Translations under genes and position numbers: made by a program
Shown here: piece by piece, positions 7,208 through 64,000 of the stretch
How positions within the stretch are numbered: position 1 is the stretch's first letter
Layout: the number at the start of each line of letters is the position of its first letter
The notes under the pieces: model-generated
What the model was told of the DNA's origin: nothing
What the model saw: only the letters and a program-made list of their open reading frames with translations
Database searches by the model: none
From: Candidatus Omnitrophota bacterium
GTDB taxonomy: Bacteria > Omnitrophota > Gorgyraeia > Gygaellales > Profunditerraquicolaceae
Reading direction: 5' to 3'
DNA: 64,000 nucleotides
Assembly (NCBI GenBank): GCA_028717245.1
Contig: JAQUOD010000003.1
Span: 85,636 to 149,635, forward strand

Positions 7208-7699
7208 ATGAAACGTTTATTTGTCGACTTAGACATCTGTAACCAGTGCAAAGATTGCAGCGCATTCTGCGATTATTTTTATCATCCGCAGAATAACGGG
7301 ATCACTTCTTTGCGCGAATATGCCACCTTTGCTACTATCTGCCGGCATTGCGAAGAGGCGCCCTGCGTAAATTCCTGTTATCATAATGCCTTGGAACGCT
7401 CAAGCGACGGTCACATTAAACGTTATAAGATGCGCTGCACCAGCTGTAAATCCTGTTCTGTAGCTTGTCCCTTCGGGATAATCTTTCAGGATTTCATCCT
7501 ATATCTAGACTCCAGGTGTGATTACTGCGTAGGCAAGAGCGCTAAGTTGCCTAAGTGCGTAACCAGCTGCCCCCATAAGGCCATAGAGATTAAAGAAATA
7601 GAAGAGGATTTGGAGAAAAATATTTATTTTGTAGGCGAACATCTGGCTGTGCATACGCGTAAGTGGTCGAAAGAAGACTTGCAGCCAAAAAAGAGATGA
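7208..7699 (+). CDS. Polyferredoxin-like 4Fe-4S cluster protein
   Basis: Four Cys-rich motifs (CNQCKDCSAFC, CRHCEEAPCVNSC, CTSCKSCSVACP, CDYCVGK...C...CP). Confidence 0.6.
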   Translation: MKRLFVDLDICNQCKDCSAFCDYFYHPQNNGITSLREYATFATICRHCEEAPCVNSCYHNALERSSDGHIKRYKMRCTSCKSCSVACPFGIIFQDFILYLDSRCDYCVGKSAKLPKCVTSCPHKAIEIKEIEEDLEKNIYFVGEHLAVHTRKWSKEDLQPKKR

Positions 7700-7705
7700 C
7701 AAGTT

Positions 7706-7782
7706 CGTTATAGCGTTATAGGGTTATAGCGTTATAGCGTTTGTCAACACAGGTAGCCCGATAACGCAATAACGAAATAACG
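7706..7782. repeat. Intercistronic period-8 inverted-repeat array: (CGTTATAG)x4 then (ATAACG)x3
   Basis: cgttatagcgttatagggttatagcgttatagcgtt ... gataacgcaataacgaaataacg; second half is reverse complement of first. Confidence 0.7.
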
Positions 7783-7787
7783 AAAAT

Positions 7788-8702
7788 ATGCTAAAATTAT
7801 TTTTTCAGTATTTAATATTTCCCGGTTTTCTTTTTAGTGCCTGCGTAGGCTTAATCGCCGGATGGATAGATAGAAAAGTCAGCGCCCGCATCCAGTGGCG
7901 GGTAGGCCCGCCCTGGTATCAGAATTTTGTGGATATCGTGAAATTATTAGGTAAGGAGACCATTGTGCCTGAAGGGGCAAAACTAACCTTTTTATTCTCG
8001 CCCTTTTTAGGCCTATTAAGTTTGATTTTAGTAGCAACAATCTTGGGATTGAATATGTATTCTGCTCCGGCAGGCTTTAGCGGAGATATCATTGTAATCT
8101 TATATCTTTTGACTGTCCCTGCGCTGGCAGTAATCATGGGCGCTTCTTCTTCCAGGAACCCCTTGGCCTCCATTGGTGCCTCACGAGAGATGAAACTGGT
8201 TTTAGGATACGAATTGCCGTTTATATTAGCCGTGATTGCGGTAATAATCAGGTCCGAAGGCGCGATAAAAATCGGCTCGGTCTTAGGGCATCAGATAAAT
8301 GCCGGCTCAAATCTGGCATCCTGGTCAGGGGCCCTGGCGTTTCTGGTAGCCATAATTTGTATGCAGGCAAAGTTGGGCCTGGTGCCGTTTGATATGTCCG
8401 AAGCGGAGCAGGAGATTATGGGCGGGGCCTTTATTGAATATTCGGGCCTGCCTCTGGCTATCTTTAAATTGACAAAGGCGATTTTACTTTATACAATGCC
8501 CCTGTTCTTGATCAGTTTATTCTGGGGTGAGGGCTTAAGCATTTTAGCTTTAACAGGTAAATACATCGCCATATTAGTCATCATCATCCTGATTAAAAAT
8601 ACCAACCCGCGTTTACGCATTGATCAGGCATTAAGATTCTTTTGGGGGCCGGTGACTATTTTAGCGGTGATTGCGGTTGTATTAGCGTTGTTTGGTATAT
8701 AA
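7788..8702 (+). CDS. Membrane-bound hydrogenase subunit MbhM / NuoH-HycD-like
   Basis: DRKVSARIQWRVGP NuoH signature; 8 TM helices. Confidence 0.85.
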   Translation: MLKLFFQYLIFPGFLFSACVGLIAGWIDRKVSARIQWRVGPPWYQNFVDIVKLLGKETIVPEGAKLTFLFSPFLGLLSLILVATILGLNMYSAPAGFSGDIIVILYLLTVPALAVIMGASSSRNPLASIGASREMKLVLGYELPFILAVIAVIIRSEGAIKIGSVLGHQINAGSNLASWSGALAFLVAIICMQAKLGLVPFDMSEAEQEIMGGAFIEYSGLPLAIFKLTKAILLYTMPLFLISLFWGEGLSILALTGKYIAILVIIILIKNTNPRLRIDQALRFFWGPVTILAVIAVVLALFGI

Positions 8703-8822
8703 ATGTTAGAATGTTCAAATGTTGTAAAGTTTGAATGTTGTATATGTTTGTATAAATCTTAGAAAACATTTTAACATTAAAACTTAACATTAAAACATTA
8801 TAACTTTATAACATTCTAACAG
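8702..8822. repeat. Intercistronic period-8 inverted-repeat array: (AATGTT)x5 then (AACATT)x5, outer 12 nt perfectly inverted
   Basis: aatgttagaatgttcaaatgttg...ttgaatgttg ... aacattttaacattaaaacttaacattaaaacatta...ataacattctaaca. Confidence 0.7.
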
Positions 8823-8829
8823 TAAAAGC

Positions 8830-9255
8830 ATGGACCTTAAATTAAAAGCATTAACAAAATCAATCTGGGTTTTTCATGCAGCGACGTCTCCCTGCAACAA
8901 TTGCGATATTGAAATCCTGGACTTACTTACTCCCAGGCACGATGTCGAACGCTTGGGGATAGTTTTAGTAGGAAGCGTGCGGCAGGCTGATGCCCTTTTA
9001 GTAACGGGGGTGCCTAATTATAAAACCAAAGAAAGGCTAAAAAAACTCTATGCTCAAGCGCCTAAACCTTGTTTGGTTGCGGCAATCGGCGGCTGTGCCT
9101 GCGGAAGGATAATTTTTCAGGAATCCTATAATAGCCCCTGCGCAGTGGATGAAATAATTCCTGTAGATGTCTATATCCCCGGCTGCCCGCCTAAGCCGGA
9201 GGCAATGATCGCGGGAATCGCAAAGTTGATAAAGAAAGTTAGAGGCGAAAAATAA
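8830..9255 (+). CDS. [NiFe] hydrogenase small subunit MbhJ / NuoB-like
   Basis: Cys ligands SPCNNCD, GGCACG, PGCPP; ~140 aa NuoB fold. Confidence 0.85.
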   Translation: MDLKLKALTKSIWVFHAATSPCNNCDIEILDLLTPRHDVERLGIVLVGSVRQADALLVTGVPNYKTKERLKKLYAQAPKPCLVAAIGGCACGRIIFQESYNSPCAVDEIIPVDVYIPGCPPKPEAMIAGIAKLIKKVRGEK

Positions 9256-9683
9256 TGTCTATAGCGGATGAGATTAAAGATAAATTGGCCGGTAAAATAG
9301 CTCATTGGCATGAGCACTCGGCAAAGAGGATATATTTTTCCATCAATCCTCAGGATATCAGGGGCGCAGTGAGTTTCTTATTCAAAGATTTGGGTTTAAG
9401 GTTTGCTACTGCTTCGGCCCAGGATACGCCGCAGGGCTTAGAGATATTATACCATTTTAGTTTTGATGAGACCGGAGAAATGGTTTCGGTGCGGGTTTTG
9501 ATAGAAGATAAAAAGAATCCCCAGATAGATTCTATCGCCCCGCTTTTTAAGGGCGCAGAGTGGATTGAGCGTGAAGTATGGGAGCTATTGGGAATTAATT
9601 TTATCGGGCATCCGGATTTAAAGAGGTTACTCCTGGCTGATGAATGGCCGGAAAATAAGTATCCATTAAGAAAAGAAAAATAG
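9255..9683 (+). CDS. Hydrogenase subunit MbhK / NuoC-like
   Basis: NuoC-like ~140 aa protein between NuoB-like and NuoD-like genes. Confidence 0.75.
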   Translation: MSIADEIKDKLAGKIAHWHEHSAKRIYFSINPQDIRGAVSFLFKDLGLRFATASAQDTPQGLEILYHFSFDETGEMVSVRVLIEDKKNPQIDSIAPLFKGAEWIEREVWELLGINFIGHPDLKRLLLADEWPENKYPLRKEK

Positions 9684-9759
9684 TTCGTTGAGTTTTTAGA
9701 GTTCATTGGGTTCGTAGAGTTTTAACTCAATAACTCAAGAAACTCAAATAACTCAATAA
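9684..9759. repeat. Intercistronic period-8 inverted-repeat array: (GAGTT)x4 then (AACTC)x4
   Basis: agttcgttgagtttttagagttcattgggttcgtagagtt ... aactcaataactcaagaaactcaaataactca; begins with same AGTTCGTT 8-mer as array at 7701. Confidence 0.7.
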
Positions 9760-9765
9760 ACAAAT

Positions 9766-10962
9766 ATGTCGCACAAAGTTATAATACCAATTGGCCCCTA
9801 TCATCCTCTGCAGGAAGAGCCGGAACTCTTCAGGCTTTATGTAGAGGGGGAGAAGGTAGTGGATATCGATATCGTCTTAGGCTATGTGCACCGGGGAATC
9901 GAAGAACTCTCTGAGCACAAGCATTTTGACCAGGTCCCGTTTCTGGTCGAGCGTATCTGCGGTATCTGTTCCTCTAGCCACCCCTATGCCTATGTGTTGG
10001 CAGTAGAGGATATATTAGGCGGCGAAGCAAAGGTGGTGCCCGAGAGGGCGCTCTATATACGCACGATTGTAGATGAACTGCAGCGTATTCACAGCCATTT
10101 ATTATGGCTGGGCTTAGCCGGCCACTTTATCGGATACAATACCGTCTGGATGTGGGCCTGGAAATACCGCGAGCCGGTATTGGATTGTTTTGAAATGATT
10201 TGTGGTAACCGCAATCATTACGGTATGAGCAAGGTCGGGGGCGTGCGCCGCGATATAAAAGATGAGGATATACCTATATTAAAGAAGGTTATAGATGAGT
10301 TAGCCCCGGCCGTGGACATGTTTAAGGGCGCAGTAATGGATGACCCAGTGATACAGGCAAGGCTTAAGGGAGTAGGTATTTTAACCAGGCAGCAGGCTGT
10401 TGACTGGTGCGTTGTCGGCCCGACGGGGAGGGCCTCGGGAGTAAATATAGATGTGCGCAGGGACGACCCCTACGGCGTATTTGATAGGGTAGACTGGAAT
10501 GTAATTATAGAAAAAGACGGGGATGTATTCGCCAAGACAAGAGTCCGGATCTTAGAGCTTTATGAATCAATAAGCATTATCCGTCAATGCCTGAATAAAA
10601 TGCCTAAGGGTGAAATCGACGCCGATATAAAGGATATACCTGCCGGAGAAGGCATAGGCCGCGTTGAGGCGCCCAGGGGAGAGTGTTTTCATTACGTAAG
10701 AAGCGACGGCACGAACAGGCCGATCAGGCATAAAATCCGCGCCCCCAGTTTTATGAACGTAGCTTCTAATAAGGTCGCTGTAATCGGAGGCACCATATCA
10801 GATGCGGCCATTACCCTGGCAGCGGTTGACCCTTGTTACTGTTGTACGGAGAGGCTGGCGGTTTTAGACAGGGGTAGCGATAAAAAGGTGATGAACGGCT
10901 GGGACCTGATAAAATTATCCCAGGAAAAGACGGAGAAGTTGAAAAAAAGCCGTAAGTTGTAA
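9766..10962 (+). CDS. Group 4 [NiFe] hydrogenase large (catalytic) subunit MbhL / NuoD-HycE-like
   Basis: N-terminal RICGICSSSH (L1 Ni-Fe ligand motif) and C-terminal DPCYCCTER (L2 DPCxxC motif). Confidence 0.85.
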   Translation: MSHKVIIPIGPYHPLQEEPELFRLYVEGEKVVDIDIVLGYVHRGIEELSEHKHFDQVPFLVERICGICSSSHPYAYVLAVEDILGGEAKVVPERALYIRTIVDELQRIHSHLLWLGLAGHFIGYNTVWMWAWKYREPVLDCFEMICGNRNHYGMSKVGGVRRDIKDEDIPILKKVIDELAPAVDMFKGAVMDDPVIQARLKGVGILTRQQAVDWCVVGPTGRASGVNIDVRRDDPYGVFDRVDWNVIIEKDGDVFAKTRVRILELYESISIIRQCLNKMPKGEIDADIKDIPAGEGIGRVEAPRGECFHYVRSDGTNRPIRHKIRAPSFMNVASNKVAVIGGTISDAAITLAAVDPCYCCTERLAVLDRGSDKKVMNGWDLIKLSQEKTEKLKKSRKL

Positions 10963-10980
10963 GTTTATATTATAGCTAAA

Positions 10981-12651
10981 ATGATAAACTTTTTTTACCC
11001 TTTATTTAAATGGGATAGTTTAAATAGTTTTGTGGTCCTGGCAATAGGTTTATTCTCCGTCCTGACCATAATCTATTCTTTTGGCTTCATGAAAGGAAAA
11101 CAGCGGCTTTTTCAATATTATACCTATATTATCTTAACGGCAGCCGCCTCTGTGTTAGCCGTACTTTCTAACCATCTGGCTTTACTTTTATTGTTCTGGG
11201 GTTTTTTGGGCCTGACGCTTTATCTTCTTGTGAATATGGGCGATAATGCCAGCGCTATAGCCAAAAAGACCTTTATTATCGTAGGCGGTTCGGACGCATT
11301 AATGTTATTGGGCATAGGCATTATTTATTATCTTGCGGGCAGCATGCAGATGGATATGATTAAAATCAGGCCGGATAGCGGCCTAGCAATATCGGCCTAT
11401 CTTTGTATTGCCGTTGCCTGTTTTGCCAAGGCCGGTGCCATGCCGTTTCATTCCTGGATTCCGGATACAGCCAAAGATGCCCCGCTTCCGGTGGTAGCGT
11501 ATCTTCCCGCTGCGCTGGATAAATTATTAGGGATTTATCTTTTGGCGCGGCTCTCCCTGAATTTATTTGTAATGAACAACGGCTTAAATATATTCCTTAT
11601 GGTTATCGGCGCCTTTACTATCGTGGCTGCGGTGATGATGGCTTTAGTCCAGCACAATATGAAGAAACTCCTGGGTTACCATGTGGTTTCACAGGTAGGG
11701 TACATGATTTTAGGTATAGGCACGGGTAATCCTATTGGTATTGCCGGCGGCCTCTTCCATATGCTAAACAACGCAATATATAAATCCTGTTTATTTTTCA
11801 CCAGCGGCAATGTTGAGTATCGCACTAAAACCAGCGAATTAGATGAATTAGGCGGCCTTGCCAGGGCAATGCCCCTTACCTATATATCCGCGCTTGTGGC
11901 CAGCCTTTCGATATCCGGGATTCCGCCTTTTAACGGATTTTTTTCCAAATGGATGATCTATCAAGGAATTGTTGAAATGTTTAAAAGTTCAAATATTTAC
12001 GTGTTTAAAAATCTTTTATGCATGTTATGTTTAATTGCAGCGATGCTTGGAAGTACTTTGACTTTAGCATCATTTATGAAAATAATTCATGCTGTTTTTT
12101 TAGGACAATCGCCTAACATTAAAACATTCCAGCATTCCAACATTTTAACAGAAGTCCGTTGGGCAATGTGGCTTCCCTGCATTATTTTGGCAGGCCTTTG
12201 TATTATCTTCGGCGTATTTGCTGTGCAGCTGCCCATGAAATATTTTATTTTACCCGTCGTGGGCCCGGTTGTTTTTATCGGGGCATGGTATGCGGGCTTA
12301 TCGATGCTACTGATAGTTGTTGCTTTAGCCATAGGTATTTTTATAGTGGGTTTTGGTTTATTAAAGACTTCTCTGCGCCAGGATGTGGCATTCACGGGTA
12401 CAGAATCCCTCGATTTAGAAGAGCACAGGGTCACGGGAACGGAATTTTATAACACTATCAGGGAATTCGGCATTTTTAAAGCGCTTTATAAAAAAGCAGA
12501 GGCAGGATTATTCGATATTTACGAAGGGCTTAAGAAGCTGGTATTTGCCGTATCCGGGGCAATGCAGTATTTACATAACGGCATATTGCCGACATACCTG
12601 GTCTGGTGTTTATTAGGGATGGCGGTTTTATTTTTCTGGTTTTTTAGATAG
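10981..12651 (+). CDS. Mrp antiporter subunit A / NuoL-like membrane subunit (MbhH-like)
   Basis: 556 aa, ~16 TM, NuoL/MrpA family motifs (WIPDTAKDAPLPV, VSQVGYM). Confidence 0.8.
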   Translation: MINFFYPLFKWDSLNSFVVLAIGLFSVLTIIYSFGFMKGKQRLFQYYTYIILTAAASVLAVLSNHLALLLLFWGFLGLTLYLLVNMGDNASAIAKKTFIIVGGSDALMLLGIGIIYYLAGSMQMDMIKIRPDSGLAISAYLCIAVACFAKAGAMPFHSWIPDTAKDAPLPVVAYLPAALDKLLGIYLLARLSLNLFVMNNGLNIFLMVIGAFTIVAAVMMALVQHNMKKLLGYHVVSQVGYMILGIGTGNPIGIAGGLFHMLNNAIYKSCLFFTSGNVEYRTKTSELDELGGLARAMPLTYISALVASLSISGIPPFNGFFSKWMIYQGIVEMFKSSNIYVFKNLLCMLCLIAAMLGSTLTLASFMKIIHAVFLGQSPNIKTFQHSNILTEVRWAMWLPCIILAGLCIIFGVFAVQLPMKYFILPVVGPVVFIGAWYAGLSMLLIVVALAIGIFIVGFGLLKTSLRQDVAFTGTESLDLEEHRVTGTEFYNTIREFGIFKALYKKAEAGLFDIYEGLKKLVFAVSGAMQYLHNGILPTYLVWCLLGMAVLFFWFFR

Positions 12652-16260: not shown

Positions 16261-16587
16261 ATGAATGAGATTTTCGGCATGGTTATGATTATGGTCGGTT
16301 TGGGGTTTAATTTTTTAGGTTGCCTGGGGCTGATAAGGCTGCCCGACGTCTATAACCGCTTGCATGCCTCTATCAAATGCGTGACCTTAGGGACCAGCAG
16401 CATACTTTTCGGCTTATTCCTCTATAAAGGTTTTACTGCCTGCGGGGCGAAGGCCCTTTTATGCATATTATTTCTGGCATTAACCGCTCCTGTGTCAGCT
16501 CACGTCTTATCCAGGAGCGCGCATAAATCAGGCGTGAAGCTTTGGGAAAAGTCAGTCTGCGATAAGTACGCAGAAGATAAAAAATGA
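16261..16587 (+). CDS. MrpG-like subunit
   Basis: ~108 aa, MnhG-like hydrophobic pattern. Confidence 0.65.
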   Translation: MNEIFGMVMIMVGLGFNFLGCLGLIRLPDVYNRLHASIKCVTLGTSSILFGLFLYKGFTACGAKALLCILFLALTAPVSAHVLSRSAHKSGVKLWEKSVCDKYAEDKK

Positions 16588-17183
16588 AATATCCCAAACT
16601 AAGAGAATTAAAAGAAGCAATAAGGGCACTCATCAAGGGTCCTTACACTTCTAAGTTTCCTTACCAGCCGCATAAGCCTTTTGAGAGATTCCGGGGAAAG
16701 CCGGAATTCCACGAGAAAGATTGCGTGGGTTGCGGCGCCTGTTTTCAGGTCTGCCCGTCAGGGGCAATCAAGATGGAAGATACCAGAGGCAAGAGGGTCC
16801 TGACGCTGAATTGGGATATGTGCATATTCTGCGGGCAATGCCAGGCCAATTGCATAACCGGTAAAGGCATTATGCTTTCCAATGAATTCGATTTAGCGAC
16901 AACGGGAAAAAGAGGGGAGCTAAAACAGACGATAGAAAAGGAATTTATTGTTTGCTGCTGTTGCGGTGAAAACATTATACCTTACGCGCAGATGCTCTGG
17001 GTAGCCAATAAACTCGGCCCGCTTTGTTTCTCCAATGCTTCGTTGATGCTTTTTTATCTAAAAGACTTAGGACTCGCCCCTGAAACAGAATGCCCTCCTA
17101 AGGAAGGATTCGGATTCCGGCGCGCTGACCGTATAGAAGTCCTCTGCCCCCGCTGCCGGCGCCTAGCTGTGCTCAAATCCTAA
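16584..17183 (+). CDS. 2x[4Fe-4S] ferredoxin subunit MbhN / NuoI-like
   Basis: CVGCGACFQVCP and CIFCGQCQANC motifs. Confidence 0.8.
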   Translation: MKYPKLRELKEAIRALIKGPYTSKFPYQPHKPFERFRGKPEFHEKDCVGCGACFQVCPSGAIKMEDTRGKRVLTLNWDMCIFCGQCQANCITGKGIMLSNEFDLATTGKRGELKQTIEKEFIVCCCCGENIIPYAQMLWVANKLGPLCFSNASLMLFYLKDLGLAPETECPPKEGFGFRRADRIEVLCPRCRRLAVLKS

Positions 17184-19477: not shown

Positions 19478-19531
19478 TTTAGGCGTATCCTCACCTTGAA
19501 AAACAGGTAATTATAGTGTATACTTATATTA

Positions 19532-19714
19532 GCCGATAAAGGTAAACCCGCCGAAAGGCGGATAACGCAAAGCCACAGGCCTAAGTTGCTTTAGCCGGTC
19601 GTTTCTATCGCGAATTTTTCGGGTAGAATAGTGAGGCGGTGAGTAGCAATATGGTAGCTGGGTTGCCGTAAGTAAAGGTGTTGCAAGCTGCGTAAAGCGG
19701 GCACCTTTATCGGC
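19532..19714 (+). ncRNA. Candidate structured RNA or MITE-like element bounded by perfect 12-bp inverted repeats (gccgataaaggt ... acctttatcggc)
   Basis: 12-bp perfect terminal IR enclosing 159 nt with internal GNRA hairpin (ccgccgaaaggcgg); immediately followed by intrinsic terminator. Confidence 0.3.
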
Positions 19715-23134: not shown

Positions 23135-23147
23135 AATGGAGGAAAAA

Positions 23148-23705
23148 ATGTTAAATCCCAAATCCCAATTTACAAATCCCAAACAAATCCCAAATCCCAA
23201 TTTACAAAATTATAAACAAAAAATTTTCAGTCATTGGTTATTATTGGGAATTTGCTACTTGATGTTTGGAATTTTAATGAGCGGTTGCGCTTCGCTGACC
23301 GAGGCGGCTAAAGGGTTCGCCGGCATTTCTACCAAAGTTCTGGAGGACAACCGTAGTTCTGCCATCACTAAGGTCTTTAATTACGATTACTTTAGCTCTT
23401 ATACCAAAACGCTGGATATCCTTAAGCGCATGGAGGCATACATTTATAAACAGGACATTAAAAAGCATATGATTGCTATTTATGTTTCCCGCGAAGATAC
23501 TACTGTGGTGGGTTTATTTTTTAAAGAGATAGACGCTAATAATACCAAAATAGAAGTATCTTCGCCGAGCACCTATGCCAAAGAGTTTATTTCCGCAGGC
23601 GTATTTTCTGTTTTGGATAAAACAATGACTTTGGAAGAACTGGAGGTGCGTACCCGTGTACAAAGACAAAAAGCAAAAGAACAAGCAGGACTGGGAGATA
23701 AATAA
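23148..23705 (+). CDS. Putative lipoprotein (start uncertain)
   Basis: GGAGG RBS 5 nt before ATG 23148; hydrophobic segment then Cys (LMSGC); N-terminal region made of a frame-inconsistent 8-nt periodic DNA repeat. Confidence 0.45.
   Translation: MLNPKSQFTNPKQIPNPNLQNYKQKIFSHWLLLGICYLMFGILMSGCASLTEAAKGFAGISTKVLEDNRSSAITKVFNYDYFSSYTKTLDILKRMEAYIYKQDIKKHMIAIYVSREDTTVVGLFFKEIDANNTKIEVSSPSTYAKEFISAGVFSVLDKTMTLEELEVRTRVQRQKAKEQAGLGDK
23155..23215. repeat. Period-8 ATCCCAA repeat block (23-nt unit aaatcccaaatcccaatttacaa x2)
   Basis: aaatcccaaatcccaatttacaa atcccaaac aaatcccaaatcccaatttacaa; partial inverted copy attgggaatttg at ~23236. Confidence 0.6.
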
Positions 23706-28394: not shown

Positions 28395-28466
28395 GCCGAG
28401 GTAGCTCAGTGGTAGAGCGCGGCCCTGAAAAGGCCGGCGTGGGGGGTCCGATTCCCTCCCTCGGCA
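28395..28466 (+). tRNA. tRNA-Phe (anticodon GAA)
   Basis: Acceptor gccgagg/cctcggc, D-arm tagctcagtggtagagc, anticodon stem cggcc/ggccg with loop ctGAAaa, T-arm ggggg-tccgatt-ccctc; integrase immediately downstream. Confidence 0.75.
28453..28466 (+). repeat. attL core: 14-bp direct repeat TCCCTCCCTCGGCA (3' end of tRNA-Phe)
   Basis: identical 14-mer recurs at 39339-39352. Confidence 0.65.
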
Positions 28467-28587: not shown

Positions 28588-29613
28588 GTGGCAACTCTCC
28601 GTCGGAGAAACGAATCATACTTTGTTGACTACCGGATTAACGGTAGGCGCTTCCGTAAAAAAGTAGGTCCTTCCAAAAGAATAGCCGAGCTTGCCCTAAA
28701 AGATATAGAAGTTAAAATAGCTAAGGGTGAATTAGGTTTTTCACCAAAAGACAATTCTCTAGAGAAGCTATTTGAAGAATATCTTAAATACTCCAAGATA
28801 AACCACGCTCCGAATACTTACGAAAGATACAGGGGGATTCTTGATAACTTCAAGTCTTTCCTTGCTACTCGCCCCTATGTAAATAAGATTTCTCATTTAG
28901 ATCCTAAGTTATTTGAAGATTATAAGCATTTCCGTAAAGAGGGGAAAGCTGAAGATAAAACAGTTAATATAGAGCTTCAGATGCTCCGGGGTATGTTTAA
29001 TTTGGCACGGAAGTGGGGTTATTCTCAAAATAATCCCACAGAAGGCGTAACTTTCTTTAGAATTACCAAAACCCAGGAGCCAAGATTTCTCTCAAAAGAA
29101 GAATGCGAGAAGTTGCTAAATAATTGTGGAGAAGAGTTATATCCTATATTCTTTACTTTTCTTAACACTGGCATGAGAAGAGGTGAGTTGCTTAATCTTG
29201 AATGGAAAGATATAGATTTTAGCAGGAAGAGACTACAAATAAGAGCTAAAGAGGATTGGGAGCCTAAAACCTCAGAACGGTATATTCCTATGAACGATAG
29301 CTTGATAAAGGTACTAAAGAAGCATAAGGAAAAGAGTAGAGGCAGTTTAGTATTTACTGATAATAAAGGCGAGAAAATTCATAAAAACGAAATTAGGAAG
29401 GAACTTATTCGGATCACAAAGAAAAGCGCTTTTCCCGATGTAACAAAATTGCATAGTCTCCGGCATACTTTTGCAAGCCATTTGGTTATGAGCGGAGTAG
29501 ATTTGCCCACAGTAAAAAAACTAATGGGGCACTCAGACATAGAGACAACTATGATTTATTCTCACTTAGCGGATGAACACGTAGATAGGGCAGTAGAAAA
29601 ACTGGAGTTTTAG
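28588..29613 (+). CDS. int: Tyrosine-type site-specific recombinase (phage integrase family)
   Basis: C-terminal catalytic HSLRHTFASHLV...GHSDIETTMIYSHL (R..HxxR..Y) motifs; GTG start. Confidence 0.9.
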   Translation: MATLRRRNESYFVDYRINGRRFRKKVGPSKRIAELALKDIEVKIAKGELGFSPKDNSLEKLFEEYLKYSKINHAPNTYERYRGILDNFKSFLATRPYVNKISHLDPKLFEDYKHFRKEGKAEDKTVNIELQMLRGMFNLARKWGYSQNNPTEGVTFFRITKTQEPRFLSKEECEKLLNNCGEELYPIFFTFLNTGMRRGELLNLEWKDIDFSRKRLQIRAKEDWEPKTSERYIPMNDSLIKVLKKHKEKSRGSLVFTDNKGEKIHKNEIRKELIRITKKSAFPDVTKLHSLRHTFASHLVMSGVDLPTVKKLMGHSDIETTMIYSHLADEHVDRAVEKLEF

Positions 29614-31636: not shown

Positions 31637-33199
31637 ATGCCGAATGCTATAGAAGGTAAATATTGCATTTTTAATTACTCTGAATTCCCACAGCTTAAAG
31701 ATAGGGCTTTTCAGTTATTCCAGTATTTTGAGAATAAATACCCAAAGATTCTACAGCTCGTTGATCTTCCAATGCGTGAGAGGGTTAATATCGTTATGAA
31801 AACATTACCCTTAGGGCCACCAGCTGGGAAGACTGGCCATAGTGATATCTATTTGGATCCGAACCAGCTTGATCCTAAGGATTTAGGAGTCTTAGTCCAT
31901 GAGGGAACTCATGTGGCACAAGATTTTCAAGATGATAACTTTGAAAATATTGATAATAAATTATGGCTTATAGAAGGAATGGCTAATCATGTGCGATTGT
32001 TGTTGGGATGGGATGGTCCGAATCAACCCAAATTCGAACCAAGCAAAATAAAAATAAATACTAGCTTGAAAGAGCAAAGAGACTATGATGTGTGGGCTGA
32101 ATTTTTTAAATGGTTAGCAACAAAATATTCTAAAGGAAACTTGCTTGTTGATTTTACAAATGCGTTGAAAAATAGCGAAACAGATGAAGCTTTCCTCAAA
32201 AGAGAATTTGGTAAGTCTAGTGGACAACTCTGGGGAGAATTTGAAGGTCGAGTACTTTTTGAACAATTCAAGGTTAAAAGAGAATTATGGATAGAATGCC
32301 TCTCCGGTAAAGACCGTAATTCTATATTCAATCAGATTTTTGACATGGTTTGGAATGCTGCCGTTTTTAGAGTAATTAACGAGGCGCGCAAGATAACTGC
32401 GGAAAATGAAGAAGGTCAGAAGGAAATCAATGGGATGTTACATCACTTTATAGATGAGTGTTTCTTCGATAGTCAATTTCTTGCTATTCGCCGGTTAACA
32501 GATCCAGCTTATGAGCTACGTGATGCCGAGAGAGGGATTTTTTCTCTATTTGCATTATTAAATGATATGAGGAAAAATATAGCGTTATTCACTAGGGAGA
32601 ATTTTTTTGCAGCAGAAGGTCTCGAATATGATTACGAGGCTATTGAGAAACGAGAGCAAGAGTTTATCGCTGAACAAGTAAAAAATGGACAACGGGTTAT
32701 TTGGGGGCCGCGAGACTTAGATAGTTGGCCGATAAAATTACGTCATGAAGCAATTGATGCGTTATCTGGAGTAAGCGCAGAGCAACGCAAGCCTTCTGAT
32801 GTTATCCAAGAAAAAGTCTTAGATTGTTTAATTAAGATACTTAAAGACGTATCGACAGACATTAACCTATACGTGAATAAATACATAGCGCATCTCGCTA
32901 CGCCTCAGAGTCGGGAGCATTATAAGGCTGATGAAGTATCGATTACCTTAGGTCATTTGTGGAATGCATATAAAGTAATATGTCAGGTTGCTAATTTTGT
33001 CGATTCATATATGCTTACGGGAGCGAGTCACAGTTTTTTACCAGTTCCACAATTTAATAATTTTGAATTTATTGAGAAGTCCTTGGTTTCTTATTCAAAT
33101 ATCGAGGTTTTAAGCAAGGCATGGGATGATTTTTCTAAGGAAACAAGTTCTTGGGGTTCTTGGGGTCTGAAAGAGCTCCGTGAACAAAGTGGGCTTTAG
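31637..33199 (+). CDS. Multidomain protein: N-terminal HExxHxxQ zinc-metallopeptidase-like domain (BSP/basic-secretory-protein-like) + ~320-aa C-terminal domain of unknown function
   Basis: HEGTHVAQD motif at ~aa 88-96; rest unmatched. Confidence 0.5.
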   Translation: MPNAIEGKYCIFNYSEFPQLKDRAFQLFQYFENKYPKILQLVDLPMRERVNIVMKTLPLGPPAGKTGHSDIYLDPNQLDPKDLGVLVHEGTHVAQDFQDDNFENIDNKLWLIEGMANHVRLLLGWDGPNQPKFEPSKIKINTSLKEQRDYDVWAEFFKWLATKYSKGNLLVDFTNALKNSETDEAFLKREFGKSSGQLWGEFEGRVLFEQFKVKRELWIECLSGKDRNSIFNQIFDMVWNAAVFRVINEARKITAENEEGQKEINGMLHHFIDECFFDSQFLAIRRLTDPAYELRDAERGIFSLFALLNDMRKNIALFTRENFFAAEGLEYDYEAIEKREQEFIAEQVKNGQRVIWGPRDLDSWPIKLRHEAIDALSGVSAEQRKPSDVIQEKVLDCLIKILKDVSTDINLYVNKYIAHLATPQSREHYKADEVSITLGHLWNAYKVICQVANFVDSYMLTGASHSFLPVPQFNNFEFIEKSLVSYSNIEVLSKAWDDFSKETSSWGSWGLKELREQSGL

Positions 33200-63768: not shown

Positions 63769-64000
63769 TAAGAAACTACACTAGAACTGCTAAGAGAGTA
63801 CTTTTAAAAGGCCTTGCTTTTAAGATTATTAGAAGTAAGGTCTTTTAATAATTGTATCCACCTTGCGAGGGTAGACAATAAATAACACTTTATTATGACA
63901 TAATGTAAAATATATTTCGCACTTTTGATATTGTCTAAGGAATAAAAAAGGCATATCCTCTTAGGTTGATAACGCAAATTATTAACCTAACCGGGCTGTT

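Follow-up and report, generated by a model that had tools for sequence, protein, structure and literature searches.

The operon for a membrane-bound NiFe hydrogenase in a 64,000-nt stretch of Candidatus Omnitrophota bacterium DNA (contig JAQUOD010000003.1, positions 85,636 to 149,635; hereafter the window) contains three intercistronic gaps that are filled by tandem copies of a short unit followed by tandem copies of its complement. We refer to the filling of one such gap as a cassette, and name each junction by its two flanking genes. These arrays are simple-sequence-repeat palindromes that fill operon stop-to-start gaps across the phylum, and their grammar matches that of the hairpins formed by short tandemly repeated repetitive (STRR) elements in cyanobacteria. 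The composite reading proposed here, which joins the nature of the arrays with an origin by replication slippage and a role at the RNA level, is given a probability of about 55%; most of that weight lies on nature and origin and little on the RNA role.

The three gaps lie between the genes for a ferredoxin (Fd) and an MbhM-like subunit (M), between M and the MbhJ-like gene (J), and between the MbhK-like (K) and MbhL-like (L) genes. Tandem Repeats Finder (TRF) resolved each of them into three to seven tandem units of 8–9 nt followed by complementary units, the second array ending 4–11 nt upstream of the next ATG (Table 1). The initial annotation, made from the letters alone, had described three arrays with these units at these positions inside the hydrogenase operon, and both TRF and exact counts of the unit cores bore this out; the operon is a single one with all its genes in the same direction. 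In gap 1, GTTATAG is present in four of its 10 window copies and ATAACG in three of 19; gap 2 holds three of the 29 copies of AATGTT and five of the 26 of AACATT, with an extra AATGTT at 8702 that overlaps the stop codon and lies outside the counted range; and gap 3 holds three of 64 copies of GAGTT and four of 30 of AACTC. The first and third arrays both begin with AGTTCGTT (at 7702 and 9682), as had been noticed at the outset; this string has four copies in the window against 1.44 expected.

An inverted-repeat search returned arms of 31, 57 and 30 nt with 72–77% complementarity. The predicted RNA folds of gaps 1, 2 and 3 have energies of −29.4, −29.0 and −27.8 kcal/mol (z −5.75, −4.45 and −6.81, respectively), and in each case none of 200 dinucleotide shuffles matched the native value, in agreement with the earlier description of every gap as one long imperfect hairpin. 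The arms had been described as exact reverse complements, which holds for a core of 5–7 nt in each unit and fails in the spacers of 1–2 nt between cores. The spacers are homogenised separately within each arm, and because they differ between arms the stem carries regular mismatches. Copy numbers on the two arms, thought to be equal, are only similar (4.5/3.1, 4.8/7.5 and about 4.4/4.4), and the reported spacing of about 8 nt applies to most arms with the exception of the 5' arm of gap 3, which has a period of 9. All six arms consist of at least three head-to-tail copies of a 5–11 nt unit, as STRRs and long simple sequence repeats do. In their intergenic position and their predicted folding into a hairpin of complementary units, the window cassettes and 41 paired cassettes of relatives (below) have the form of the STRRs found between hupS and hupL.

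Cassettes in the hydrogenase operons of relatives

The closest relatives of the MbhM-like protein in genomes and metagenomes are all from Omnitrophota metagenome-assembled genomes (MAGs), at no more than 81% protein identity. Near-identical relatives were also sought for slippage variants of the window arrays, but a search for a record of the identical MbhM protein found none, and the best genome and metagenome relatives reach the 81% just given. We collected 160 syntenic loci, which together with the window gave 149 non-redundant sequences (148 loci, numbered with the prefix L, plus the window) totalling 1.25 Mb. The gene order FNR-Fd-M-J-K-L is conserved across the loci, and the median gap is about 0 nt at every core junction, in the form of ATGA or TAATG overlaps and of an 11-nt overlap at K-L. 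Among the first 80 genome loci, 15–25% have a gap of at least 50 nt at a given junction. Long gaps in the relatives repeat the grammar with other units, including TCCGTT/AACGGA, TAGTTCA/TGAACTA, ACAGAAG/TCTGnnn, AAATCC/GGATTT, AGCGTAA/CTTTACG and GTCAC/GTGAC, and have fold z-scores of about −3 to −10. The search of syntenic gaps that the initial annotation had suggested thus found the shared grammar repeatedly, with different units, which marks it as a feature of the lineage and not of the window.

A census of arrays by TRF (period 6–11, at least 2.8 copies, hits merged) gave 235 arrays in the 149 sequences, 141 of which fall within the approximately 6% of sequence that remained as intergenic after ORF calling with a crude caller. 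The intergenic arrays have a period of 7 in 98 of the 141 cases, of 8 in 21 and of 9 in 13, and 97 arrays have at least two inverted copies of the core within 160 nt. Homology to the genes of the operon defined 618 junctions; arrays are present at 74 of these, 41 paired with inverted copies and 33 of other kinds. In the 41 paired cassettes the median distance from the stop codon to the stem is 0 nt and that from the stem to the AUG is 5 nt. The median stem, gap and fold energy are 36 bp, 110 nt and −31.6 kcal/mol, and the final 12 nt before the AUG are 42% A.

Cassettes are concentrated in the hydrogenase core. Co-directional junctions between open reading frames (ORFs) of at least 120 aa were compared between the core, from FNR to L, and flanks of 6 kb on either side. 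Arrays are present at 68 of 614 core junctions and at 13 of 613 flank junctions (odds ratio 5.7, p 1e-10), and when only gaps of at least 45 nt are considered, arrays fill 64 of 118 (54%) in the core and 13 of 188 (7%) in the flanks. The J-K junction (9252–9257 in the window) has no repeat array in any of 117 cases, seven of which hold other long inserts, whereas the four neighbouring junction types have arrays in 10–19% of loci. Two or more arrays are present in 16 loci against 11.2 expected (p 0.025). The window itself, with 81 junctions, has no intergenic array other than those three core ones described above.

Comparison of individual cassettes altered the initial view that the three arrays share only a grammar and are not copies of one REP or MITE. 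Gap 1 has its CGTT 5' units, its AACG 3' units and its AACGAA..ATG end in common with the Fd-M cassettes of L004, L136 and L096, and its unit GTTATAGG also builds the FNR-Fd cassette of L004. Gap 3 and the K-L gap of L137 have the same TTCGTT head and the exact tail TAAACAAAT-ATG-TCGCACAAAG, with similarity also to the K-L cassettes of L135, L098 and L126; in gap 3 the pairing core has moved from TTCGTT/AACGAA to GAGTT/AACTC on both arms. Gaps 1 and 3 are thus members of one CGTT/AACG family with orthologues at the same junctions. The homologue of gap 2 lies at a different junction: the K-L gap of L001, the closest relative, matches its 3' 49 nt with 89.8% identity (E 5e-10), and both gaps begin with TAAATGTTnGAATGTT. 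Duplication of whole cassettes from one junction to its neighbour is also apparent within single genomes. The FNR-Fd and Fd-M cassettes of L131 differ in copy number alone, and the Fd-M and M-J cassettes of L118 share their first 40 nt, TAG included, the latter cassette containing an inserted non-repeat element. L131 and L118 have one unit at two to three junctions; the 64 kb of the window hold three cassettes with three units, two of them with a related CGTT core. The initial view is thus too strong, and the arrays are members of cassette families that have diverged and are occasionally copied.

The two arms of a cassette change together. Within the CGTT family, the duplex energy averages −24.1 kcal/mol for a cassette's own arms and −15.1 kcal/mol for foreign arms, and the arms therefore co-evolve; selection for pairing and templated correction of the quasi-palindrome would each yield this result.

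Cassettes are gained or lost between closely related genomes, since pairs of loci with M genes 91.7–98.9% identical at the DNA level differ by presence or absence of a cassette. In the pair L007 and L098 (95.6% nucleotide identity), the K-L gap measures −11 and 67 nt, respectively, and the Fd-M gap is −4 nt in L007 and 19 nt in L098, where the sequence AACGTTCGAACGTTC is both a tandem and an inverted repeat. In L033 and L148 (98.9%), a 37-nt array of four direct AGTAGnT copies (FNR-Fd of L033, 5224–5246) stands against a 10-nt gap that resembles one repeat unit, and in L012 and L090 (91.7%) gaps of 72 and 69 nt stand against gaps of −4 and 1 nt. The 19-nt gap of L098 and the direct-only array of L033 look like nascent states. 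With the gain of an array the upstream gene acquires one or two new C-terminal residues and takes its stop codon from the array. In many cases the units keep register with this stop, as in window gap 2 (tAA-ATGTT), window gap 3 (TAG-TTCGTTGAG), L012 (TGA-TAGTTAA) and L082 (TAG-TTCATAG). Finally, an orthologous CAATACG array at M-J (L039, L054 and L056) varies in copy number and in unit variant, which is what replication slippage combined with homogenisation within arms would give.

Orthologous junctions therefore offer a comparative series of empty, nascent, direct-only, paired and decayed states, which can serve the study of how repeats and palindromes are born, how their arms co-evolve and how operons tolerate the insertion of a spacer.

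Two observations on the relatives stand apart from the cassettes. Two conserved families of REP-like palindromes are present at core junctions of other relatives (M-J of L021, L024, L116 and L129; K-L of L046; both M-J and K-L of L083; and L017, L052, L064 and L128). The first has the form CCCGTTAGAAAy...GGAGGTTTCTAACGGG-ATG and brings its own Shine-Dalgarno site directly before the start codon, and the second has the form GTCATTGCGAG...CGAAGCAATC...GATTGCTTCG...CTCGCAATGAC. Separately, a single MAG, JAZDFF01 (MEGAHIT-group-0.194), supplied three distinct copies of the operon core (L002, L005 and L026), so that the bin possibly contains paralogous operons or mixed strains.

Translation signals and the weighing of explanations

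Cassettes displace Shine-Dalgarno sites. When GGAG, GAGG or AGGA at positions −20 to −4 is taken as such a site, one is found at K-L in 69 of 79 orthologues with a short gap, where the motif lies within the end of the K gene, and in 7 of 16 with arrays; over all junctions a site is present at 150 of 466 short gaps and at 3 of 41 junctions with paired arrays. None of these motifs lies upstream of the three window genes next to a cassette, which are preceded by the A-rich tails AAAAT, GTAAAAGC and AAACAAAT.

The sequence of events that we favour would begin with ancestral junctions that overlapped or abutted, as the median gap of about 0 nt suggests. A short seed at the stop codon would grow by replication slippage, its arms would be kept complementary despite drift by templated correction within the hairpin, by selection or by both, and the whole cassette would sometimes be copied to a nearby stop-start junction. 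Presumably transcribed within the operon mRNA, it would fold into a mismatched stem of about 22–45 bp that compacts the spacer, so that a single helix has the preceding stop codon and the following AUG at its base. The second cistron, having lost the Shine-Dalgarno site that its orthologues have inside the upstream gene, would start from the A-rich tail of 4–11 nt. The most likely consequence is that a stable intercistronic stem-loop would act as a barrier to 3' exonucleases or as a site for RNase III, and the stem may also hold the terminating ribosome beside the following start. The hairpins may thus have a role in differential mRNA stability or processing, as the initial annotation had raised. 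An otherwise disruptive insertion would thereby be tolerated with only mild adjustment of relative subunit output, and the cassettes would be dispensable elements of fast turnover, not a conserved regulator.

Several results weigh against this reading, above all against its functional part. No inverted partner accompanies 33 of the arrays, and arrays are entirely absent from 79 of 119 loci, so that neither the hairpin nor the cassette is required. A mutational mechanism by itself, with no selection involved, could account for the co-evolution of arms. The three window hairpins are each 2.6–3.8 kcal/mol more stable on the sense than on the antisense strand, but this advantage is not general: among 44 paired gaps the sense strand is the more stable in 19 and the antisense strand in 25 (p 0.8). 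G-U pairing specific to RNA is therefore not detectable, and the idea of RNA-specific selection through such pairs was dropped. The orientation of unit families relative to transcription was also considered and proved empty as a test, as the reverse complement of an arrangement aaa-loop-a'a'a' keeps the same arm order. The predicted cost of opening the region from −12 to +12 around the AUG is 6.07 kcal/mol for paired cassettes, 6.32 kcal/mol for short gaps and 6.34 kcal/mol for other long gaps; it is no higher after cassettes, and start-site occlusion with obligatory coupling is thus unsupported. The ORF caller used for the flanking regions was, moreover, a crude one.

Much of this would fit a functionless mutational by-product, in which slippage and quasi-palindrome correction generate arrays that persist where they do little harm. 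Such an origin would account for the differences in presence between genomes 95–99% identical, the many loci free of arrays, the multitude of unit sequences, the near parity of unpaired with paired arrays and the absence of both strand asymmetry and start-site occlusion. It fits less well with the preference for particular junctions, both core over flank and in the complete avoidance of J-K, with the share of long core gaps that consist of arrays, or with the conservation of some cassette ends across genomes whose MbhM proteins are 66–78% identical to that of the window. Differential tolerance, itself a kind of selection, is the least that these three features suggest, and we give a pure by-product a modest chance of being the whole explanation.

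The cassette might alternatively serve as a bridge for translational coupling, with the terminating ribosome melting the base of the helix and so freeing the downstream start. The overlap of ancestral junctions, a helix that begins at the stop codon and ends about 5 nt short of the AUG, and the lack of Shine-Dalgarno sites in the downstream genes are in line with this, and a coupling role has also been suggested for STRR hairpins (PMC2670836). The energy needed to open the start region is, however, that of the background, the helix bases being A+T-rich and predicted to occlude the start no more than usual, and unpaired arrays are tolerated at the same junctions. The tight stop-to-start geometry itself is automatic, because any insert in a zero-length gap would show it. 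We consider coupling of this kind unlikely.

A further proposal is that self-propagating stop-to-start cassettes, equipped with their own stop codons and a leader devoid of a Shine-Dalgarno site, preferentially colonise junctions of the NiFe-hydrogenase core and persist there because a long hairpin of tunable length would set the timing or ratio of subunit synthesis required for cofactor insertion and assembly. This we hold to be decidedly unlikely; if it were true, the hupS-hupL STRR hairpins of cyanobacteria would represent a convergent solution.

A non-autonomous mobile element of MITE, REP or PATE type, mobilised by a transposase in trans and inserted at stop-start junctions, would explain why the same cassette is found at different junctions of different genomes, why near-identical cassettes occupy two junctions of one genome and why conserved REP-like palindromes are found at the same junctions in other relatives. 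Empty and filled junctions, when compared, reveal neither the target-site duplications nor the fixed termini that mark a MITE, copy number and interior sequence vary continuously, and the 19-nt nascent palindrome and the direct-only array appear in situ. Comparison of approximately 70 ORFs of the 64-kb window with Pfam gave no RNase III (rnc) gene and no RAYT, IS200-type or other transposase gene, apart from a tRNA-linked integrase 19 kb away. A mobile element is accordingly rated as very improbable.

An array of sites for a sequence-specific RNA- or DNA-binding protein, such as the S1, Csp or CsrA proposed for TAACTGA repeats, is scarcely credible: the repeats do stop a few nucleotides before start codons in place of a Shine-Dalgarno site, as TAACTGA repeats do (PMC4679880), and a limited vocabulary of units recurs across genomes, but units differ among the three window arrays, unrelated units are in use by the dozen across the phylum, and the halves of each cassette are mutually complementary, which fits pairing rather than a single motif.

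Other candidates were rejected outright. An assembly artefact is ruled out because the grammar is found across 149 independent assemblies, among them L050, a genome from a single cell, and L016, a contig of 1.19 Mb, and also because the arrays are shorter than a sequencing read. No terminator-like site was found in the three gaps, which lack the features of an intrinsic terminator, and the regional count equals that of shuffles; promoter-like matches do overlap the gaps at 8826–8797 (− strand) and 9757–9785 (+ strand), and again the regional count is not above that of shuffles, so that a terminator or promoter reading was abandoned. A search of the whole window with Rfam 15 at the gathering score returned only a tRNA and a c-di-GMP-I riboswitch, both outside the gaps, and at a permissive threshold only a chance miRNA match (E 0.99).

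The host operon and other features of the window

The window has a G+C content of 41% and nearly all of its genes are on the + strand. The segment 5273–17183 encodes a membrane-bound group 4 NiFe hydrogenase together with an NAD(P)H module, comprising sulfhydrogenase beta- and gamma-like subunits, the 2x[4Fe-4S] ferredoxin Fd, the subunits M, J, K and L, and Mrp-type antiporter subunits. The identities first given to the genes that flank the gaps were confirmed: Fd is as named, M is NuoH-like, J is NuoB-like, K is NuoC-like and L contains both nickel-binding motifs (RICGICSSSH and DPCYCCTER). Junctions in the operon are mostly tight, the exceptions being Fd-M, M-J and K-L (Table 1).

Table 1. 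Positions of the cassettes, their arms and predicted stem-loops, and the host genes in the window.
Feature	Position	Strand	Remarks
Cassette 1, entire Fd-M gap, 88 nt	7700-7787	+	1 nt past TGA to ATG 7788; CGTT/AACG family
Cassette 1, 5' tandem array CGTTATAG	7706-7741	+	TRF: period 8, 4.5 copies, 92% matches
Cassette 1, 3' complementary array ATAACGAA	7761-7785	+	TRF: period 8, 3.1 copies; A-rich tail AAAAT before ATG
Cassette 1, predicted stem-loop	7704-7776	+	three 7-8 bp helices with 1x1 mismatches between
Cassette 2, entire M-J gap, 127 nt	8703-8829	+	first unit overlaps TAA stop 8700-8702
Cassette 2, 5' array AATGTTnn (AATGTTAG)	8702-8739	+	TRF: period 8, 4.8 copies
Cassette 2, 3' complementary array AACATTnn (AACATTAT)	8765-8821	+	period 8, 7.5 copies; tail GTAAAAGC, ATG 8830
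Cassette 2, predicted stem-loop	8704-8821	+	12-bp perfect base: 8704-8715 pairs with 8810-8821
Cassette 3, entire K-L gap, 82 nt	9684-9765	+	CGTT/AACG family
Cassette 3, 5' array of TTCGTTGAG-type units	9682-9721	+	period 9 (TRF: 18 = 2 x 9), in register with TAG 9681-9683
Cassette 3, 3' complementary array AACTCAAn(n)	9723-9761	+	period 8-9, 4.4 copies; AAAT before ATG 9766
Cassette 3, predicted stem-loop	9683-9761	+	about 31 bp, periodic mismatches
Fd gene	7208-7699	+	stop TGA 7697-7699
NuoH/MbhM-like gene (M)	7788-8702	+	stop TAA 8700-8702
NuoB/MbhJ-like gene (J)	8830-9255	+	
NuoC/MbhK-like gene (K)	9255-9683	+	stop TAG 9681-9683
Group 4 NiFe large subunit gene (L)	9766-10962	+	whole host-gene span 7208-10962

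Downstream of L, the relatives have a median L-N gap of 603 nt and the window one of 18 nt (10962–10981); the approximately 600 nt between the large subunit and the first antiporter-like subunit in most relatives is probably one extra gene. The end of the window operon carries a 2x[4Fe-4S] gene (16584–17183). The AACATT unit of gap 2 also recurs with period 8 at 12113–12152, within the gene for an antiporter-like subunit, where it is part of a variable loop three residues longer than in 18 homologues.

A further repeat block at 23155–23247 had been listed in the initial annotation as similar to the three arrays. It was excluded as a fourth example, as its period is 7, no fold is predicted for it (z +0.45) and the sequence is a coding one. 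The block is an AAATCCC heptamer repeat of about seven copies (TRF 23153–23200) at the 5' end of a gene, within a lipoprotein signal sequence; a strong GGAGG (23138–23142) and an ATG at 23148 precede MLNPKSQFTNPKQIPNPNLQNYKQK and a signal of lipoprotein type that ends in GC. Because a coding unit of 7 nt alters the frame with each change in copy number, the gene at 23148 is a candidate for a phase-variable lipoprotein. The AAATCC unit of this block also makes up hairpins between cistrons in L036 and L050. Gaps filled by cassettes will mislead programs for gene calling and operon prediction, and some arrays enter coding sequence, as in this lipoprotein candidate.

Other gaps of the window that fold strongly are found at 18.4, 19.5–19.8, 33.7 and 63.8 kb, and TRF detected no short-unit array (period 6–11, at least three copies) in any of them. 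Read as sequence, those at 18.4, 19.5–19.8 and 63.8 kb are ordinary stem-loops, with the c-di-GMP-I riboswitch at 19.5 kb. The riboswitch (61 bits, 19531–19670) lies upstream of a GH1 glycosidase gene. At the window end (63955–64000) the sequence GATAACGCAAATT resembles a part of the riboswitch, GGATAACGCAAAGCC, and may belong to a second c-di-GMP-I copy that is cut off there. Elsewhere, a tRNA-Phe gene (28395–28466) is followed by a tyrosine integrase gene (28588–29613) and by poorly annotated genes up to 37300, including those for a MauJ-like protein, for a fusion of a BSP peptidase with a HEPN AbiU2 domain (31637–33199) and for a SpoVG-like protein; the segment 28395–37300 is probably an integrated island.

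Comparison with known systems

For 35 years there have been anecdotal notes on cyanobacterial hairpins between cistrons that are made of repeats. The window units CGTTATAG, AATGTTnn and TTCGTTGAG/AACTCAAn differ from what we take to be the cyanobacterial STRR heptamers, and the window cassettes are an analogue of, and not a member of, the named cyanobacterial unit families. The initial annotation did not recognise this repeat-built form as described, and that view has to give way to three precedents: the STRRs themselves (PMC2670836), the P6b hairpin of a Nostoc intron (PMC3488679) and the 5' untranslated region (5'UTR) of Haemophilus influenzae hmw (PMC12721329).

STRRs, which usually have repeats of 7 bp, form intergenic hairpins, among them one between hupS and hupL in four species, and a role in transcript stability or translational coupling has been proposed for them (PMC2670836). 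Like the window cassettes, the hupS-hupL examples of Anabaena, Nostoc and Lyngbya are tandem repeats of a short unit that form a transcribed intergenic hairpin between hydrogenase subunit genes, and heptamers are the commonest units in the Omnitrophota relatives as well. They differ in phylum and in unit sequence, the window units being 8–9 nt and the likeness one of description, and the window cassettes fill the whole gap from stop to start and cluster at particular junctions of one operon.

In the tRNA-Leu(UAA) group I intron of Nostoc, P6b is a hairpin of variable copy number whose two arms are degenerate, mutually pairing heptanucleotide repeats, according to the account in PMC3488679, which cites Costa et al. 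2002. As summarised there, strains vary by copy number and by inserted non-repeat elements, as do the Omnitrophota cassettes (for example at M-J of L118), although P6b lies inside a structured intron and is a single locus, not a dispersed class. The hmw 5'UTR contains an (ATCTTTC)n tract that makes up one side of a long hairpin in the mRNA. RNase III cleaves this hairpin, and expression and change in repeat number both depend on the hairpin, on transcription and on RNase III (PMC12721329). The window cassettes share with it a repeat array as an arm of a long, here predicted, mRNA hairpin. In hmw, however, only one arm is repetitive, the other being a G-rich tract, whereas both arms are repeats in the window, and the hmw hairpin lies in a 5'UTR and serves phase variation of an adhesin in a pathogen. 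By analogy, hmw gives experimental support for the idea that such hairpins may be RNase III substrates that set expression, and for a feedback of transcription and folding on changes in repeat number.

The REP and BIME elements of enterobacteria resemble the window cassettes as imperfect palindromes within operons, placed after stop codons. By Newbury (1987) and by Liang, Rudd and Deutscher (2015), REPs are reported to make upstream mRNA more stable and, at a distance of no more than about 15 nt from the stop codon, to lower upstream translation. They have one consensus per genome, no tandem units and a link to RAYT, features that are not seen in the window; the window cassettes share only AGTTCGTT, and their interiors differ even between orthologues.

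TAACTGA heptamer repeats are known from marine Beggiatoaceae, some cyanobacteria and Bacteroidetes, with binding of S1, Csp or CsrA proposed, and the arrays described by MacGregor lie upstream of starts in gaps without a canonical ribosome-binding site (PMC4679880). As reported there after Mrazek 2007, tandem repeats with units of 5–11 nt, heptamers being commonest, are sporadic in bacteria and attributed to slippage. The TAACTGA arrays are like the cassettes in their short units, their position before starts that lack a Shine-Dalgarno site and the slippage origin proposed for them; they are unlike them in using one unit genome-wide, in comprising 169 direct sets against one indirect set and in being predicted to be unstructured.

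We found no published account of such repeats in Omnitrophota. The features that we have not seen reported for any of these systems are families that fill exact stop-to-start gaps, copying from junction to junction and the preference for hydrogenase junctions. The analysis adds three things: the abundance of this grammar in a phylum that is both unrelated and uncultured, its concentration at certain junctions of the conserved hydrogenase operon, and its replacement of gene overlaps linked to a Shine-Dalgarno site.

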